Source of the DNA: a virus
Lineage: Duplodnaviria > Caudoviricetes
Direction: 5' to 3' (one strand)
Length of the DNA stretch: 44,595 nt
IMG/VR virus record: IMGVR_UViG_3300010234_000020
Location: 1-44,595 of that record
The first letter of the stretch is position 1. Every line of letters begins with the position of its first letter. Both the position numbers and the translations under genes were made by a program. Under the pieces are notes generated by a model that was not told the origin of the DNA, ran no database searches, and saw only the letters and a program-made list of their open reading frames with translations. Positions 15,244-27,826 of the stretch are shown piece by piece.

Positions 15244-15623
15244 GAGTCACCCCCGCACGCTTGGTGAGCGGCATCGCCGGGAGATTGGGCGATCTCGTTG
15301 GTGGCCGTCGTCGGCTCGTCTGGGGCACGCTGGCAGTACAGACAGCGCGAGGCGTCCGCAGGCGCACCCTCACACGCCTTCGCAGATCGCAGCGCCGCCT
15401 CCAGCCGCTCCGCGCGGGTCTTCCACGCATCACGCGCGTTCGTCAGCGCGGCCTTGACCCCGCGCGTCGCGTTCCGCGCCTCGTCCCGCTCGCGCTCGGC
15501 CTTCTCGCGGGCCTCGCGCTCCGCCAGCAGTTCGCGGAAGATTTCCATGTGGCTCGCGTCCATGTCGCGGGTCCGTATCAGGAACTCACGCTGGCACTTG
15601 ACCTCGTCGCTGATGTCAGACAT
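15240..15623 (-). CDS. Coiled-coil hypothetical protein, 127 aa
   Basis: EREAREKAERERDEAR heptads, CLYC; overlaps the PLP gene stop. Confidence 0.65.
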   Translation of the reverse strand: MSDISDEVKCQREFLIRTRDMDASHMEIFRELLAEREAREKAERERDEARNATRGVKAALTNARDAWKTRAERLEAALRSAKACEGAPADASRCLYCQRAPDEPTTATNEIAQSPGDAAHQACGGDS

Positions 15624-16425
15624 CGGTCGCCCCCATCGGCCGTCGGCCGGTGTTCCAGAACAGGTCACCCGGGGTCATGTGGCCCCATGCCTTCGCCGCG
15701 TACCCGGGGTCCAGCGCCCCGATACCGGCCACCTCCACCCGCTCCGGGCGGTCGTACGCGGACCCGTGCAGTCGGAGCGTGGCCGGGGGCAGGGGCGAGT
15801 TACCGGTGAACACGCGGGCCATGTCGAACACCCCGGACAGGGTCGCCATGCCCGACACGGCGACCCCCGACACGTGGACGTGTGACCGCCCACGGATGGC
15901 GAGGCCCGAGATGATCCCGGCCATGACGGCCCCGGACCCGACCGGGACAACGATGCGCGTCACGTCCCTGGGGACGTTGTGCGTCTGCAGGCCCGAGTCC
16001 ACCGTGGCGAGTCGGCGGTCCCACCGCACGACCGGTCGCCCGTCCGCGATGGCCCACGCCTTCGCGCGCGCCCGGCACACGGACAGGTATCCGGGCCGGA
16101 CCGGGTGGATGATGGCGCCGCACTCGCGGGCGTACCTGGTCTCCGGCGACTCCGTGGCGCGCGCCGATACGAACACGTGCCCCTCCCGGCCGTACGCCCG
16201 CGCCATCGCGGCGACGTAGACCTGCATGAGGGACGTGGCGGAGCACCCGACCACGAGGATAGCCTCCGGCGGGTGGGCCGCGATCATCCGGGCGTACACC
16301 CGGCACTTCGCCCCCGACGGTGACCCGGGGCCGAGTTTCATGGCCAGGTCCTCGCGCTTCACGAGGTGCCCCGAACCGTCGGGGGCGACGGGGGTGAGGG
16401 AGACGTCGATGAACGGGTCCGGCAT
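15616..16425 (-). CDS. Fold-type II PLP-dependent enzyme (ACC deaminase/D-cysteine desulfhydrase-like)
   Basis: LTPV, VKREDL, SGAKCR (Schiff-base Lys), VPVGSG phosphate loop, LDPGYAAKA, LFWNTG. Confidence 0.88.
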   Translation of the reverse strand: MPDPFIDVSLTPVAPDGSGHLVKREDLAMKLGPGSPSGAKCRVYARMIAAHPPEAILVVGCSATSLMQVYVAAMARAYGREGHVFVSARATESPETRYARECGAIIHPVRPGYLSVCRARAKAWAIADGRPVVRWDRRLATVDSGLQTHNVPRDVTRIVVPVGSGAVMAGIISGLAIRGRSHVHVSGVAVSGMATLSGVFDMARVFTGNSPLPPATLRLHGSAYDRPERVEVAGIGALDPGYAAKAWGHMTPGDLFWNTGRRPMGATDV

Positions 16426-17399
16426 CAGACACCGTCCCCGTCGGTCACGGGACCGATCGCGCGCGCGGCGGCCTTCGGGTCGCCCTTCACGAAGACCAGC
16501 ATGGTCTGGTGCGTGCGCCCGATCTTGCGCGACACGTCGAACTGCTTCCTGGCGCGCATCGCCAACGTGCCCGTGGCCGTCTGGAGGATGATCTCGTTGT
16601 AGTACCGCACGCCGGGCGCCGACGTGGCGGCCGCGATGGTCTCGCCCACGAAGTCGCGGAGCGTGCCGCGCTTGTCGCGGAAGTTCCCGACGACGATGGC
16701 GGCGAACCGGTCGGCGCGCAGGCGGGTGCAGGCGGCCCGGATGATCTCCGCGTACGCCTCACGGAACGCGTCGGCGTCCATCGTGGACAGGTCGAGGGGA
16801 TCGTCGCTGTACCGCTCGAGGTCGCCGTACGGGGGGCACGTGAAGACCATGTCGTACCCGGTGACGTCGGGCCACCCGTTCGGGATCACGTGACGACTAT
16901 CACCGGCCTGCCACGTGGCGCGGTGGGCGTTGACGCCGAGGATCTCGGTGGCCTGGGCGCGGTTCGCCAGGACCTGGGCCTTCCGTAGATCGACCCCGTT
17001 GTACTCGCGCCCGAGGACGGCGGCGACGATGCCGCGCACCGATCCACCCGCGAACGGGTCGAGGATGTTGCCGCGCGGGGGGCAGAACCAGCGGTAGGCC
17101 AGCTCACACAGGACGGGGTCGAAGATCGACGTGTCCGACTGGCCGCCATCCTTGACGTCGTCCGTCTTGTCGATCCAGTCGGCGATGTTGTAGCAGAGGC
17201 CGTCGTCGCGCCCCACCTCGCTGCGGATGCCCAGGGCCTTCCAGCCGCGCTTCCGGTCCTGCCACGGCCCGGCGCCAGCGTGTAGGACGCTGAACGGCGG
17301 CAGGATGAACGCGTCGGCGAGGGCGTTTCGCGTGGACGAGGGGGGTGGTAGTGGGTTGCCCCACAGGTCGAGCCCGTACGGGGCGAAGTCGTCGGTCAT
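16425..17399 (-). CDS. SAM-dependent DNA amino-methyltransferase-like protein, 324 aa
   Basis: SIFDPVLCELAYRWF, motif I ILDPFAGGSVRG, motif IV VFTCPPY; AAGGAGG RBS before ATG 17399. Confidence 0.88.
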   Translation of the reverse strand: MTDDFAPYGLDLWGNPLPPPSSTRNALADAFILPPFSVLHAGAGPWQDRKRGWKALGIRSEVGRDDGLCYNIADWIDKTDDVKDGGQSDTSIFDPVLCELAYRWFCPPRGNILDPFAGGSVRGIVAAVLGREYNGVDLRKAQVLANRAQATEILGVNAHRATWQAGDSRHVIPNGWPDVTGYDMVFTCPPYGDLERYSDDPLDLSTMDADAFREAYAEIIRAACTRLRADRFAAIVVGNFRDKRGTLRDFVGETIAAATSAPGVRYYNEIILQTATGTLAMRARKQFDVSRKIGRTHQTMLVFVKGDPKAAARAIGPVTDGDGV

Positions 17400-17460
17400 C
17401 GGGTGCCTCCTTGGTCGCCGGAATGGCGACGTGAGGCGACGGTACCACGCGGGTCCGACA
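17400..17460 (-). promoter_or_regulatory. Early expression cassette (leftward)
   Basis: CCGCGTGG 17452-17445, TACCGT, GTCGCC-ATTCC-GGCGAC, AAGGAGGCAC. Confidence 0.75.
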
Positions 17461-17469
17461 TGCGCCAAT

Positions 17470-17695
17470 GGCGGGGAAGGACACTTCCCCTCGGACTTGT
17501 CCGGTACATCCGCCCGGGGCCGTCCGGGGCGGTCCGGGCGCCTATCCGGGGTCGCTTCCGCCAACAGACAGACAAGACTTACTTCTACACTCTCTAATCT
17601 TACGGCTACACCCGGGGAGGGGTGGGACTTGTCCGAGTCCTTCGTGCCTGGGGGGTGGGACACTTGTCCAGTTCGCCCCCCCCGAAGTGTCCCAG
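17470..17695. other. Putative replication origin/operator region
   Basis: Divergent intergenic gap; GGAC(AC)TTGTCC-type repeats flank an AT-rich tract at about 17563-17603. Confidence 0.55.
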
Positions 17696-17755
17696 TCCCC
17701 GCCATGTGATACCGTGCGGTGGTGGCGTCGATGGGGACGCCCTGGAGACACCTGC
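17695..17755 (+). promoter_or_regulatory. Early expression cassette (rightward)
   Basis: GTCCCCG-CCATGTGA-TACCGT, GGCGTC-GATGGG-GACGCC 17724-17741, GGAGACAC. Confidence 0.75.
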
Positions 17756-20740
17756 ATGACCATCCGCGACGACATCGAAACCCACGGGCGACTCCCCGCC
17801 CTCATCGCCCACCTGTTCCCCACGATCGGCCCCCGGGGTAAGGTCCGGTGCCCAACGCCGGAACACGAGGACCGGAACCCCAGCGCGTCCCTGAACGCCG
17901 AGACGGGCGCGTGGAAGTGCCACGGTTGCGGCGCGCGTGGTGACGCCGTTTCGCTCTACGGCGACCGGCTCGGCCTCACCGACTTCGCCGACATCGCGGA
18001 GGCCCTGCGGGGGGCCGGTTTCCTGCCCCCCGGCGATGGACCCGCGCCCCCACGTTCCCCCGTTGCGCCCCGTACGGTGACCCCGCCGAAGGGGCCGGTG
18101 GCCGAGGTTGCGGTGGGGCCGCGCCCGGGGATCATGCCCCCCGATGACGCGCCTCGCGACATTCCACCCCTCACCGCATGGCCGCCCACGGCCGACGTCC
18201 TCAACGCCCTCGGGTGGGTCCGGTCGGGTGACGTCGTCCGCGTCCCCGTGGTCAACGGGTCGGGGGTGGTGTGCGGGGTGAAGGTGCGCGGGGGGCGGGG
18301 ACGGGACGGCCGGGTCAGGACGTTCTTCGAGCCGTGCCGGTCGGGTACCCAGGACCCCGGCGTGATCGTGACGCGCGACATCATCGGGGGCCAACGTGGT
18401 CGCCTCGCGTTCGTGGTGGAGGGTGAGTCGGACATGGCGGCCGTCACGTGGGCGGCGACCGCCGAGGGGGTCCGCGTCCCGGTGGTCACGTCATCGAACG
18501 GCGCCACCAGTGGGCTGCCCGGGGGTGGCGCCGCCCTCCTCGCCGGGTACCGCGTCGCCGTGATCTACGACGCCGACGCGGCGGGGGTCCGTGGTGCGAC
18601 CGCCGTGGCCGACGAACTGGCGGCCGCAGGCATCCCGGTCACCGTCCTCGACCTGTGGGACGCCGTGACGGAACGCCGTGGCCGTGACCTCCGCGACTAC
18701 CTCGCGCACGGCGGCACCGTCGCCACCCTCATCGACGCCGCCGAACGTGCCCTCGCCGGTGACGGCCCGGGGGATGACGACGCGCGCCACGATGACCCCC
18801 CGGCGGACTGGTGGGAGGACCGGCGGCTGGAGCCCCTGGACGTTCCCGACGCCATGACGCCCCTCCCCACCATTGGCGTCGCGCCCCCCATGATCCTCCG
18901 CCTCGTGGATAGCCTCGCGGCCAGCATGCAGATCCACCGCGAACAGGTGTTCGTGACCATCGCCCCCGTCCTCGCCGCATCGGCCGGGGAGCCGTGGGCG
19001 GTGGACCGGGTGGAGTGGGGGGTGGAGCGCCCGGCGAGGGTGTACCGCGAGCCGTGCCTGGCGCGGTGGGCGTTGTTCGGCGCCGGGTCGGGGAGTCGGA
19101 AGACCGGCACGATCAACGCGGTCACCCGCCCGATGCGGGAGTGGGAGGCGGCGCGGGCGGTGGAGTTCCGCGCGGACGAGATCGAGTGGCGGGGCCGCAA
19201 GGACGCCCTGATCCAGCAGCGCAAGCGCGCCCTCAGCGACATCGAGCACCTCGACCGTGGCGCGGAGTGGGAGGACGCGATGGCGGCGATCCGCGAGATC
19301 GACATGGCCCTCGAGTTCGAGGCGCCCGCCGAGTTGCGGGTGATCGAGGACAACGTGACCCCGGAGCAGTTTCTGGTCGTGTCGTGTCAGTCGCCGATCG
19401 CCCGGAGCATCATCGCCCACGAGGGCCGGGGGATGGCGTCGATCATCATGGGCGGGTACGCGGGCCGGACGCAGGAGGCGATGATCCTGCCGTTCGCCGA
19501 CGGCCTCCCCGGCGGCATCTCCCGTCGGAACAATGATACGCAGATCCACAGCCCGCGCCTCGTCGGGTCGCTGCTGATGGCCCTCCAGCCCGACGTCCTG
19601 AACGGCATGATGGGCAGCGCGAACCTCCGCAGCAGCGGCTTCCTGAGCCGATGTTCGGTCGTGCGCGTCCCCGGCTACGACACGGCCCGGAACCTCGTGG
19701 CCGAACCGGCCGAACCGGACGCGGCGGCGGAGGCGTGGTGGGGGCGGGTCATCGACGCCCTCCTGACCTTCGCCGCGATGCGACCCGAGGACGAGGAGGA
19801 CGAGGCGGCGGGGGGCGATGACGAGCCGACGTTCGGGGGCGACGTCCACGGCATCGCCGACAACGATCTATCCGCCCCCACGCGGCCGCGCATGAACGTC
19901 CTGACCCTCACCGGCGAGGCGTTCCACGAGTTCATCGTCTACGAGCAGTGGTGCGAGGAGATGCGCGCGGCGACGTCCGGGGAGTCGGGGCCGGTGTCGG
20001 GCATGATCGAGAAGCAGGCGATGGCCGCCCTACGCCTCGCCGCCCTCTACCACCTCACCACCCTGGCCCACGACGGCCTGTTGTCGCGCGCCGCGAATTA
20101 TCCGATCCCCGTGGAGTGCGTGCGTTGGGCGACGGCGGCCCAGGACTGGCTGGCCGAGGAGACGCGGCGGGCCATGGAGGTCACGATCTGCGACACGCCC
20201 GAACTGGTCCTCGCCCGTCGCATCGCGTCCATCATGCGCGACCGTCTACGCCTCGACCCCTCCGACCGATCCATGACGCCGCCGGAGATGCGGGACATCA
20301 TCCCGGGCGCCGAGGTGTCGGTGGTGGAGGCCGCGCTGCGGACACTTGTCCGCTTCGGCTATTGCCGCATGCCCCGGGATGAGTCACGGTACTGGCGCGA
20401 GCGCACGGTCCGGTACGAGTTCCACCCGGGCCTGGCCGAGATGTCGGACGAGGACCTGGCGCCCGACACCCTGCGGGTCATCGTGGACGCTGACGGCCGC
20501 CAGATCACGCTTCGCGGCGACACCGGCGTCCCGGCCAAGGCGATCATCACGGCGCCCCAGGCGGCGTTGTCCACCGCCCAGCAGGAGGAGGTATTCCTCC
20601 GCTACGGGCGGGGTGAGACCCAGGGGGCGTTGGCCACCGAGTACGGGGTGAGCGTGAAGACGGTGAGCCGGACCGTGAAGCGTGTGCGTGCGGCGATGGC
20701 CGAGAAGGCGGCTCGCGACACGGTGGCGGACTCGTTCTAG
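17756..20740 (+). CDS. Primase-helicase-like replication protein: CHC2 zinc finger + TOPRIM + DUF3987 P-loop + C-terminal HTH, 994 aa
   Basis: CPTPEHEDRNPS..WKCHGCG; VVEGESD, YDADAAG, DLRDYL; AGSGSRKT, SGFLSR; ETQGALATEYGVSVKTVSR. Confidence 0.88.
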   Translation: MTIRDDIETHGRLPALIAHLFPTIGPRGKVRCPTPEHEDRNPSASLNAETGAWKCHGCGARGDAVSLYGDRLGLTDFADIAEALRGAGFLPPGDGPAPPRSPVAPRTVTPPKGPVAEVAVGPRPGIMPPDDAPRDIPPLTAWPPTADVLNALGWVRSGDVVRVPVVNGSGVVCGVKVRGGRGRDGRVRTFFEPCRSGTQDPGVIVTRDIIGGQRGRLAFVVEGESDMAAVTWAATAEGVRVPVVTSSNGATSGLPGGGAALLAGYRVAVIYDADAAGVRGATAVADELAAAGIPVTVLDLWDAVTERRGRDLRDYLAHGGTVATLIDAAERALAGDGPGDDDARHDDPPADWWEDRRLEPLDVPDAMTPLPTIGVAPPMILRLVDSLAASMQIHREQVFVTIAPVLAASAGEPWAVDRVEWGVERPARVYREPCLARWALFGAGSGSRKTGTINAVTRPMREWEAARAVEFRADEIEWRGRKDALIQQRKRALSDIEHLDRGAEWEDAMAAIREIDMALEFEAPAELRVIEDNVTPEQFLVVSCQSPIARSIIAHEGRGMASIIMGGYAGRTQEAMILPFADGLPGGISRRNNDTQIHSPRLVGSLLMALQPDVLNGMMGSANLRSSGFLSRCSVVRVPGYDTARNLVAEPAEPDAAAEAWWGRVIDALLTFAAMRPEDEEDEAAGGDDEPTFGGDVHGIADNDLSAPTRPRMNVLTLTGEAFHEFIVYEQWCEEMRAATSGESGPVSGMIEKQAMAALRLAALYHLTTLAHDGLLSRAANYPIPVECVRWATAAQDWLAEETRRAMEVTICDTPELVLARRIASIMRDRLRLDPSDRSMTPPEMRDIIPGAEVSVVEAALRTLVRFGYCRMPRDESRYWRERTVRYEFHPGLAEMSDEDLAPDTLRVIVDADGRQITLRGDTGVPAKAIITAPQAALSTAQQEEVFLRYGRGETQGALATEYGVSVKTVSRTVKRVRAAMAEKAARDTVADSF

Positions 20741-26553: not shown

Positions 26554-27113
26554 CAGGGCCTCCGGGACATCGCGTACAGAATGGCGCTGGCGGGGACGAT
26601 GTCGGCCAGGCGGCGGTCGTTTTCGTACGTCGCCCGGATGAGACCCACGAGGCGGCCCTGGTGATCGAACACCCCCGACCCGCTATCACCCCGGGAGATC
26701 CATCCGTCCGACAGGGCGACCGACCGGCCATCGACCGCCGTGGCGGGGATGTTCCGGTGAGCCAGGCGCACCGTGACCGGGGTGCCCTCGACCAGGGGGA
26801 CGCGCCGAACCGGAGCGGGGATGCGCCGGGGGCCGCCCCCGTAGTTTTCGACGCGCAACAGTGCGACGTCGGACGTGGGGGACATCCACTCCACCTCGGT
26901 CGGGCCGATGCCCACCACGCGGGCCTCGCCACGCGGTACGACGTGGGCGGCCGTGACGATCCATCTGCCGACCGACTCGCCCCGCCCCCGGGAACCGGTC
27001 GAGCGGACGTCCCACCCGCCGCTGTCGTCGCATGGGGACGCGCAGGCGCCCGCCAGGACGACGACGGCGACAAGCACGGCTCGTGCGATCCGGGGCGCCC
27101 ACCGTGCGGGCAT
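26553..27113 (-). CDS. Lipoprotein trypsin-like (S1) serine protease, 186 aa
   Basis: Signal peptide with lipobox LAGAC; triad motifs TAAH, DVALL, GDSGS; coupled on both sides. Confidence 0.88.
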   Translation of the reverse strand: MPARWAPRIARAVLVAVVVLAGACASPCDDSGGWDVRSTGSRGRGESVGRWIVTAAHVVPRGEARVVGIGPTEVEWMSPTSDVALLRVENYGGGPRRIPAPVRRVPLVEGTPVTVRLAHRNIPATAVDGRSVALSDGWISRGDSGSGVFDHQGRLVGLIRATYENDRRLADIVPASAILYAMSRRP

Positions 27114-27826
27114 CACTTCCGCTCCCTGATCTCGTTGAGGCGCCGTTCGATCACGTGCAGGCGCTCGCGCTCCTCGTCCCATCGGCGGTCGAGCCGCTCC
27201 TCGAACCGGCCCTGCATCTGCGCGTCCCACCGGGTCGCGGACACCTTATCCATCTGCTTTTCGATGCGGTCGAGCCGCGTCACGAGCGGGACGTTGAGCA
27301 GGCGCATTTCCTGCTGGAGGCGACGGTCGATGTTCTCGACCTGAGACCCGATCCGCGAGTCCAGGATCAGCATTTCGTGCTGAAGCGTCGCGTCCAGATG
27401 CACGACGCGGTCGTCCGTGATCTGGCGGTGAGCGATGGCCCCGCCCTCGGCCCTCGCGGCACTCACGCGCGCCTCGCGCATCTTGACGACGTTCGCCTCG
27501 ATGCGCGCCTGGTTGGCGTCGTACTGCCACGCGACGACGCCGAAGAAGCCGGTGATGACCGTCAACGACAGGCCGCCGATCGTCAGCACCAGGGCGGCGA
27601 TGCCGATGATGACATTCCAGGGCGTCCGCTGACCCGTTGAGATCTTGTCGCCCAGGGCGACGATCATCCCACGCAGCCCGCCGATCTCCGCCTTGATCTC
27701 CTGGATCTCGCGGCCCTGGCTACGCAACGTCGCGCGGATCGCTTCGTTGCTTCGGGTCTCCACCTCGGTCATCGCGTGGAGCCTTCGCTCGAGTGCGTCA
27801 AGGGCGGGGAGGGCGCGGTGAGGCAT
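27113..27826 (-). CDS. Membrane-anchored coiled-coil protein (possible holin/spanin-like)
   Basis: Coiled coil, long hydrophobic segment WNVIIGIAALVLTIGGLSLTVITGFFGVVAW, then another coiled coil; start may be 27772. Confidence 0.65.
   Translation of the reverse strand: MPHRALPALDALERRLHAMTEVETRSNEAIRATLRSQGREIQEIKAEIGGLRGMIVALGDKISTGQRTPWNVIIGIAALVLTIGGLSLTVITGFFGVVAWQYDANQARIEANVVKMREARVSAARAEGGAIAHRQITDDRVVHLDATLQHEMLILDSRIGSQVENIDRRLQQEMRLLNVPLVTRLDRIEKQMDKVSATRWDAQMQGRFEERLDRRWDEERERLHVIERRLNEIRERK

Follow-up and report, generated by a model that had tools for sequence, protein, structure and literature searches.

A two-gene unit in a complete virus genome

This study concerns a pair of overlapping genes in a tailed-virus genome, IMG/VR record IMGVR_UViG_3300010234_000020. 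The window analyzed is the complete virus record, with 44,595 bases, a 55-base terminal repeat, and about 70% G+C. The pair encodes P0001, a protein with an amino-methyltransferase (MTase) fold, and P0002, a fold-type II enzyme dependent on pyridoxal phosphate (PLP). Together they may install a two-step modification on DNA that draws on S-adenosylmethionine (SAM), with transfer of its 3-amino-3-carboxypropyl (acp) arm as the predicted first step. The features of the pair are as follows.

16425..17399, minus strand: P0001, enzyme of 324 aa with an amino-methyltransferase fold, in PHROG family 12517/498 and without a ParB domain; putative SAM-dependent acp transferase
15616..16425, minus strand: P0002, fold-type II PLP enzyme (269 aa) related to M6 gp52 and ViI gp226; predicted to decarboxylate an amino acid linked to DNA
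16423..16427, minus strand: TGATG stop/start overlap, coupling P0001 to P0002
17034..17060, minus strand: motif I of P0001, DPFAGGSVR, with Gly119 and Arg122; SAM-type signature, with Asp and Phe in the clade linked to SAM decarboxylase
16827..16841, minus strand: motif IV of P0001, TCPPY (aa 187-191, with Cys188), a feature of the whole family
16306..16308, minus strand: Lys40 of P0002, predicted Schiff-base lysine for PLP, aligning with Lys36 of M6 gp52

The TGA of P0001 and the ATG of P0002 have one base in common. A ribosome-binding site, AAGGAGG, lies 5-6 nt upstream of the ATG of P0001, and third-position G+C (GC3) is of the coding type in both frames, at 0.87-0.93. DPFAGG occupies residues 114-119 of P0001 (nt 17060-17043). 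P0002 carries the motifs KREDL (23-27), GAKCR (with Lys40), VPVGSG (160-165) and LDPGYAAK (238-245). Both genes are intact. The original prediction, made from the bare sequence, had described the coupling through TGATG to an intact PLP gene and had named these motifs, all of which is confirmed by open reading frame (ORF) and motif reads.

The PLP enzyme is related to DNA amino-acid decarboxylases

P0002 scores above the cutoff of the Pfam model PALP (PF00291, E 1e-8), while no NCBIfam model comes near its cutoff. The PHROGs to which it belongs, phrog_7093 and phrog_3650 (7093/3650), are those of M6 gp52 and ViI gp226. Its structure model is that of a fold-type II PLP enzyme (pLDDT 95), with 1j0a as the top fold match (Z 23.3). 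Lys40 is invariant, both in 71 of 71 sequences and in all 20 sequences of a set with M6 gp52, whose own lysine is K36 (PMC8989533). A profile built from the window's PLP subfamily scores M6 gp52 at 35.9 bits and ViI gp226 at 35.6 bits, compared with 14.7 for DcyD and 13.1 for IlvA, and a profile of the broader PLP subfamily gives 81.5 and 67.9 bits for the same two phage proteins. The PLP profiles place M6 gp52 and ViI gp226 well above DcyD, IlvA, and CysK of E. coli. By profile score, then, M6 gp52 and ViI gp226, two DNA amino-acid decarboxylases, are the closest studied relatives of P0002. These enzymes decarboxylate amino acids already on DNA and require a free primary amine (PMC8989533).

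Linkage of the PLP enzyme to the methyltransferase-fold family

Among the 150 best PLP representatives, 60 are at least 350 aa long, and 51 of those 60 contain the MTase. The 51 fusions occur in three architectures, with the PLP region inserted between motifs I and IV of the MTase in 39, placed behind the MTase in 9, and placed in front of it in 3. In the broad PLP subfamily, an MTase adjoins in 77 of the 80 viral loci, some of which are near-copies of one another, and the three misses are cut within 166 bp upstream. Five records of the window's own PLP subfamily that lack an adjoining MTase were tested; three of them, including both of the complete ones, encode it elsewhere, and the two misses are only 24-30% complete. 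The neighborhood survey called for by the original prediction thus returned both co-occurrence and fusion, and the simpler alternative offered with it, a methylase next to an unrelated metabolic enzyme, is effectively refuted by the fusions, the neighbors, and the kinship to DNA decarboxylases. These findings support the view that the MTase-PLP pair is a conserved module.

Relatives carry extra domains fused to the module, namely DUF3109 (three weak matches), SET, 2OG-Fe(II) hydroxylase, and GNAT-like domains. Such fusions would fit a tailoring of a free amine. DUF3109 takes in DpdM, which methylates dPreQ1 in phage DNA according to the available portion of its description (PMC10516641). A dedicated scan found DUF3109 absent from the present genome, and SET, 2OG-Fe(II), and GNAT-like domains do not appear in its Pfam scan.

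Some further arrangements were seen in single relatives. Four viral contigs (L103, L104, L106, and L114) have the PLP gene ahead of the MTase gene and both upstream of a polymerase-like gene; their MTases have the window's loop before SIFDP, and that of L103 is the tree sister of the window MTase (SH-aLRT 93, long branch). Two MTase-PLP fusions, P0234 and P0242, contain a LAGLIDADG-bearing intein inside the MTase. A 2OG-Fe(II) domain like those of Asp/Arg hydroxylases lies between the module's parts or is fused to them in L054 (4505-5653), P0155, and P0271.

The methyltransferase-fold enzyme and its family

P0001 scores above the cutoff of PF01555 (E 7e-8), and modeling at pLDDT 84 gives it a SAM-binding fold of class I. 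The best fold matches of the model are the guanine-N2 tRNA methylases Trm11/TrmN/Trm14, with Z of 17.0-18.2, followed by the next unrelated row at 16.0; comparison with 5e72, which has the fold of a tRNA m2G catalytic domain, gives Z 18.2 and an rmsd of 2.7 over 183 aligned residues. Among solved relatives, N6A/N4C DNA methylases come out best by sequence. The original prediction had A-N6 or C-N4 as the target, and these are not favored over G-N2, given that the nearest folds methylate guanine N2. The tRNA m2G methyltransferases Trm11/TrmN/Trm14 carry a THUMP RNA-binding domain. P0001 has no Pfam match to THUMP, and only about 90 residues stand ahead of its catalytic domain.

Motif IV in N6A/N4C methylases has the consensus (D/N/S)PP(Y/F/W). 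P0001 departs from this with CPPY, as is found in 180 of 181 motif reads from the family and also in the clade linked to SAM decarboxylase. The Cys had been taken as an atypical mark of the pair, but it is the family norm, and we reject it as a marker of the PLP link. SPPY is rare in the family (phiCTP1 and L255), and the PPY base pocket is invariant. The family is very large: of 8000 scored candidates, clustered at 90% identity, at least 7987 are relatives. Public annotations name its members DNA methylases, and both fusions to ParB-N and neighborhoods of terminase genes are common. Loci for the family were obtained with alignment-based queries, which were needed as single-protein scans gave no matches. 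From 29 records, ten cultured phages were inspected, and they comprise three with the PLP enzyme (Pam4, where it is fused, Mae-JY30, and Vincenzo), two with SAM decarboxylase (ZRG1 and P2559S), and five with neither.

A sister clade linked to SAM decarboxylase

A survey of motif I covered 279 loci and yielded 271 reads, after 8 loci without an MTase gene were dropped. Where position 119 is Asp, a SAM decarboxylase (AdoMetDC) gene is a neighbor in 76 of 82 loci; 2 of the 6 without one are cut short. The 187 loci with Gly119 (one mis-parsed row is counted as Gly) include none with AdoMetDC, 29 with PLP, and 158 with neither. The remaining reads were one Glu and one His. The PLP neighbor occurs solely with Gly119, and Arg122 is replaced by Phe in all 82 Asp rows. 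After clustering at 70% identity, there are 13 Asp/Phe clusters, all with the decarboxylase, and 91 Gly/Arg clusters, 19 of them with PLP. The Gly/Arg pocket, of SAM type, is kept in 47 of 47 PLP fusions. A quick tree places the Asp/Phe members inside the family as a single monophyletic clade (SH-aLRT 99). All eight clade decarboxylases checked score above the cutoff of PF02675. No record was found with both partners, the PLP enzyme being absent from all 7 Asp-clade records tested and AdoMetDC from all 9 PLP-linked records tested, and none of five AdoMetDC-type phages encodes a spermidine synthase. The AdoMetDC of P2559S is experimentally confirmed, restoring spermidine to a speD mutant (PMC9992855).

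Work on spermidine synthase gives a basis for interpreting these positions: D103 binds the amine of decarboxylated SAM (dcSAM) and repels the carboxyl of SAM, Thr at the V106 position binds the carboxyl, and three substitutions convert the enzyme to a true methyltransferase (PMC3725402). A bridging profile of five E. coli methyltransferases aligns D88 of SpeE to Gly119 as well as to the Asp found in ZRG1 and P2559S, and M91 to Arg122/Phe; the YhdJ motif came second best. P0001 has no match to the spermidine synthase model PF01564, and spermidine synthase is not among the 50 matches listed for its fold search. The glycine-loop Asp that selects dcSAM is missing from P0001, which has Gly119 instead, and is restricted to the AdoMetDC-linked sister clade. 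Because PLP partners keep the carboxylate-accepting Gly/Arg pocket, decarboxylation should follow transfer in their case. The sister clade points, by inference, to an aminopropyl end product.

One member, from Clostridium phage phiCTP1 (L008 3364-5372), has Glu119/Lys122 with SPPY and is sister to the Asp/Phe clade (SH-aLRT 95). Its neighbors are a gene with weak likeness to DUF3109 and a 171-aa gene without assignment, and neither PLP nor AdoMetDC is in the genome. The suggestion that phiCTP1 gp52 is a degenerate PLP enzyme was not supported (match probability 4.7%; no Pfam or PHROG match).

No thymidine-hypermodification pathway detected

The dUMP hydroxymethylase/thymidylate synthase family PF00303 is absent from the complete record (the control was detected in 10 of 14). 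Searches by tblastn with M6 gp51, gp53, gp54, gp55, and gp58 found no match in the genome below E 0.2. For gp54 and gp51, the 5-hydroxymethyluracil (5-hmU) kinase and amino acid:DNA transferase, there were only fragments at E of 0.27 or more, which leaves very distant forms possible. No Pfam or PHROG match to either activity appears in 64 scanned ORFs, and a search for PF18724, run without a positive control, came back empty. The statement in the original prediction that none of these three activities was visible is therefore borne out by the PF00303 scan and tblastn. With no amino acid:DNA transferase pathway found, SAM becomes the evident source of an amino acid.

Proposed mechanism and alternatives

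We infer the chemistry and the substrate from the gene structure, folds, linkage, homology, and residue pattern observed. An acp tail would suit the PLP relatives, as those need a free primary amine, which acp has; a SAM enzyme that delivers an amino acid with both free amine and carboxyl would presumably deliver the acp arm. The modification would be post-replicative and proceed in two steps. P0001 would flip out a base, hold it in the PPY pocket, and move the acp arm of SAM, rather than the methyl, to an exocyclic amine (G-N2, A-N6, or C-N4), adding 101 Da and releasing methylthioadenosine. P0002, by homology to tested enzymes, would then join the acp tail's free alpha-amine in a Schiff base and release CO2, which leaves a 3-aminopropyl base that is cationic (+57 Da). 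The sister clade would decarboxylate SAM first and move aminopropyl from dcSAM to give the same product, while members without a partner would stop at acp. We give this reading, acp transfer to a DNA base followed by decarboxylation, somewhat better than an even chance. The two-step proposal of acp transfer and PLP chemistry in the original prediction is partly supported; it has gained a conserved module, a place nearest the DNA decarboxylases, and an aminopropyl product suggested by the sister clade, and it has shed the Cys marker, the preference for A-N6 or C-N4, and a blanket anti-restriction role.

A number of results weigh against acp transfer followed by decarboxylation. Most family members have no partner: the PLP gene occurs in 21 of 171 MTase-centered loci (flanks up to 3.5 kb, some cut), nearly always as the next gene, and 24 of 24 records picked for lacking such a neighbor had no PLP gene or SAM decarboxylase at any position, in searches whose positive controls were detected. 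Adjacency is looser in the window's own PLP subfamily: the MTase adjoins at 5 of 13 viral loci and, in metagenomes, at 6 of 27 loci, most of them short. No alignment column splits PLP-linked from unlinked MTases at thresholds of 80%/40%. Co-divergence of MTase and PLP partners was tried and gave no signal, as their distances do not co-vary (rho 0.085, with 131 of 999 permutations as high); the PLP label is also not clustered on the MTase tree (16 changes, with 74 of 500 shuffles as low; quick tree). The two results together suggest that PLP is an optional, exchanged module. The leading fold matches of P0002 (1j0a, 4d97, and 1rqx, Z 22-23) are of the ACC deaminase/D-cysteine desulfhydrase type. 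As to the sister clade, Asp/Phe loci were collected with a search pattern that itself contained Asp, and the correlation with AdoMetDC amounts to one evolutionary event, because these members form one clade, so that it leans on biochemical logic more than on statistics. Direct comparisons with SpeE missed the motif I register, one failing (hhalign probability 0.3%) and the family profile sliding two residues off.

Palindrome counts in the genome weigh on the same side. Observed and expected counts are 0 and 46 for GCCGGC, 1 and 48 for CCGCGG, 0 and 32 for GTCGAC, and 0 and 29 for GGGCCC; GAATC is likewise found 0 times with 15 expected, and there is no shortage of other palindromes built from the same letters. 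Site avoidance is a fingerprint of selection by host restriction systems, and its strength at 6-bp palindromes argues against dense protection of the DNA. It conflicts with the bulky, genome-wide anti-restriction base of the original prediction. The mark could be confined to a motif, its gain could be recent, or its role could lie in packaging. The mark is probably motif-limited, and candidates for its purpose are packaging, evasion of particular nucleases, or the marking of self. Near-total avoidance was also seen for GTGCAC, AACGTT, GAATC/GATTC, and CTAG.

P0001 could instead be a true methyltransferase that makes m6A, m4C, or m2G, with the PLP enzyme doing a separate linked step, for example on another adduct or on SAM by-products, and with the chemistry changed only in the Asp/Phe clade. 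The best matches of P0001 by sequence and by fold are amino-methylases, the nearest solved folds being methylases (a further point against acp transfer); annotation as DNA methylases and the many members that stand alone agree with this. Few substitutions switch between methyl and aminopropyl transfer. As three turn spermidine synthase into a methyltransferase, an Asp/Phe clade of non-methylases would still allow the Gly/Arg members to be methylases. We nevertheless consider a true methyltransferase unlikely, because it offers no substrate for a PLP enzyme that is inserted in the MTase in 39 fusions and is kin to DNA decarboxylases, and it leaves the alternation of two decarboxylase partners, PLP and AdoMetDC, unexplained. 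At the other extreme, the two genes might be chance neighbors, an orphan methylase beside an auxiliary metabolic deaminase or desulfhydrase. Both genes belong to common Pfam families, co-divergence gave no signal, and adjacency is loose in the window's PLP subfamily, but the 51 fusions in three architectures, the adjoining MTase in 77 of 80 loci, the translational coupling of P0001 and P0002, and the closer kinship of the PLP enzyme with phage DNA decarboxylases than with DcyD, IlvA, or CysK largely refute this, and we give it almost no credence.

Two other explanations keep the module and alter the acceptor or the order of events. The same acp-then-decarboxylation chemistry might act on RNA, phosphate (as in microcin C), protein, or a small amine such as a polyamine for packaging. 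The top folds are tRNA guanine-N2 methylases, AdoMetDC with aminopropyl transfer is the route to spermidine, and restriction-site avoidance suggests unshielded DNA. Against an acceptor of this kind stand the invariant PPY base pocket, the common ParB-N fusions and terminase-side positions, the tested PLP relatives, which work on DNA, and the lack of a detectable THUMP RNA-binding domain by Pfam or in the model, so that we judge it quite improbable. Alternatively, the PLP enzyme might act on SAM before transfer, giving dcSAM or, by elimination, a PLP-bound product for addition to the base, with the MTase fold using the product or presenting the base. SAM has a free alpha-amine, PLP takes the place of AdoMetDC as partner, insertion in the MTase would permit channeling, and the fold is closest to eliminases of the ACC deaminase type. 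PLP-linked members, however, keep Gly119/Arg122 in every case read, unlike the AdoMetDC clade, and the homologs act on DNA-bound amino acids; prior action on SAM is thus decidedly unlikely.

A wider form of acp transfer followed by decarboxylation, to which we assign a little less than an even chance, would make this family of phage "DNA methylases" the first DNA aminoalkyl transferases. On their own its members would place acp, and with PLP or AdoMetDC, as two convergent routes, aminopropyl, with fusions to DUF3109/DpdM-like, SET, 2OG-Fe(II), and GNAT-like domains tailoring the amine and guanine N2 perhaps the target. If the proposed chemistry is right, it would mean new DNA modification chemistry, in which a methylase fold moves the amino-acid arm of SAM to a base, and re-annotation of thousands of phage "methylases". 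It would also account for orphan phage SAM decarboxylases without spermidine synthase, and would provide an enzymatic way to put a primary amine handle on DNA with natural SAM as the source. The proposal is directly testable, as cultured phages exist for each version (Vincenzo/AlanGrant, Pam4, Mae-JY30, P2559S, ZRG1, and B054).

Genome setting

The Pfam/PHROG scan of 64 ORFs found terminase, Mu-like portal and head genes, RecE/RecT, primase-helicase, and RusA, with no match seen to an integrase or repressor family. P0001 is the first leftward gene past a 355-bp divergent gap, opposite the primase-helicase gene (ATG at 17756), and the next gene overlaps it, a layout that fits the earlier placing of the pair at the head of an operon.

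17400..17755: divergent control region (putative role), with ribosome-binding site, five repeats, and an A+T-richer patch

A near-palindromic, operator- or iteron-like word similar to GGAC(A)NTTGTCC has five copies in the gap, at 17479, 17493, 17625, 17658, and 17685 (span 17479-17697), and one further copy lies within the primase gene, at 20340. The A+T-richer patch covers 40 bp of the gap (17561-17600). The early timing and the nearby origin given in the original prediction are tentative: no sigma-70 promoter match was found in the gap, and the GC skew of the window has no clear turn. The ORF at 17756-20740 (plus strand) joins a CHC2 zinc finger, Toprim, a DUF3987 helicase-like domain, and a C-terminal helix-turn-helix (HTH) like sigma-70 region 4. 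A trypsin-like protease gene occupies 26556-27230 (minus strand), beyond the tail region.

Comparison with known systems

The pathway of M6 gp52 and ViI gp226 shares with the window a homologous fold-type II PLP enzyme, with an aligned catalytic Lys and 1j0a as top template (PMC8989533). The window has no pathway to 5-hydroxymethyldeoxyuridine (5-hmdU), no kinase, and no amino acid:DNA transferase, and M6 and ViI lack this MTase family. Here the partner is a SAM-dependent fold, and the predicted substrate is a tail of homoserine type (acp) borne by an exocyclic amine. The sister clade resembles SpeE/SpeD, with Asp and a hydrophobic residue at the D103/V106 registers beside a true AdoMetDC (PMC3725402, PMC9992855). 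The window enzyme differs from SpeE in having Gly/Arg at those registers and a PPY base pocket, with no AdoMetDC and no overall similarity.

The class I fold, the order of motif I then IV, and the PPY pocket are shared with N6A/N4C methylases (TTHA0409 2ZIE, CcrM, M.PvuII, and M.MboII) and with Trm11/TrmN/Trm14, from which the window enzyme departs by Cys for D/N/S, FAGGSVR for FxGxGTT, and no Pfam match to THUMP. Its matches to PF01555 methylases are only motif-sized, and its domain order is unlike that of the beta class. Known acp transferases take acp from SAM for RNA (TYW2, TapT, and Tsr3) or a peptide (MccD with MccE), and PLP decarboxylation follows in microcin C; we know of none that acts on DNA. 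The chemistry proposed here is like that of MccD (5fcd), which reaches only rank 36, with Z 14.4, amid generic methyltransferase folds in the fold search with P0001.

The same MTase family, at 33-57% identity and with a PLP or AdoMetDC partner, is found in Pam4 gp70 (ParB-MTase with PLP insert), Vincenzo/AlanGrant gp1-gp2, Mae-JY30, P2559S gp66-67, and ZRG1. The window's copy differs from these in lacking ParB and in lying near replication genes rather than terminase. A literature search outside subscription papers found no description of the MTase-PLP module; Iyer et al. (2013, NAR) reportedly surveyed phage modification neighborhoods and may mention the pairing. What the window itself adds is a ParB-less copy in a replication region, from a divergent PLP subfamily, together with restriction-site avoidance. 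Set beside the systems above, the module would extend phage base hypermodification, and there is a genuine chance that its chemistry is new to DNA.

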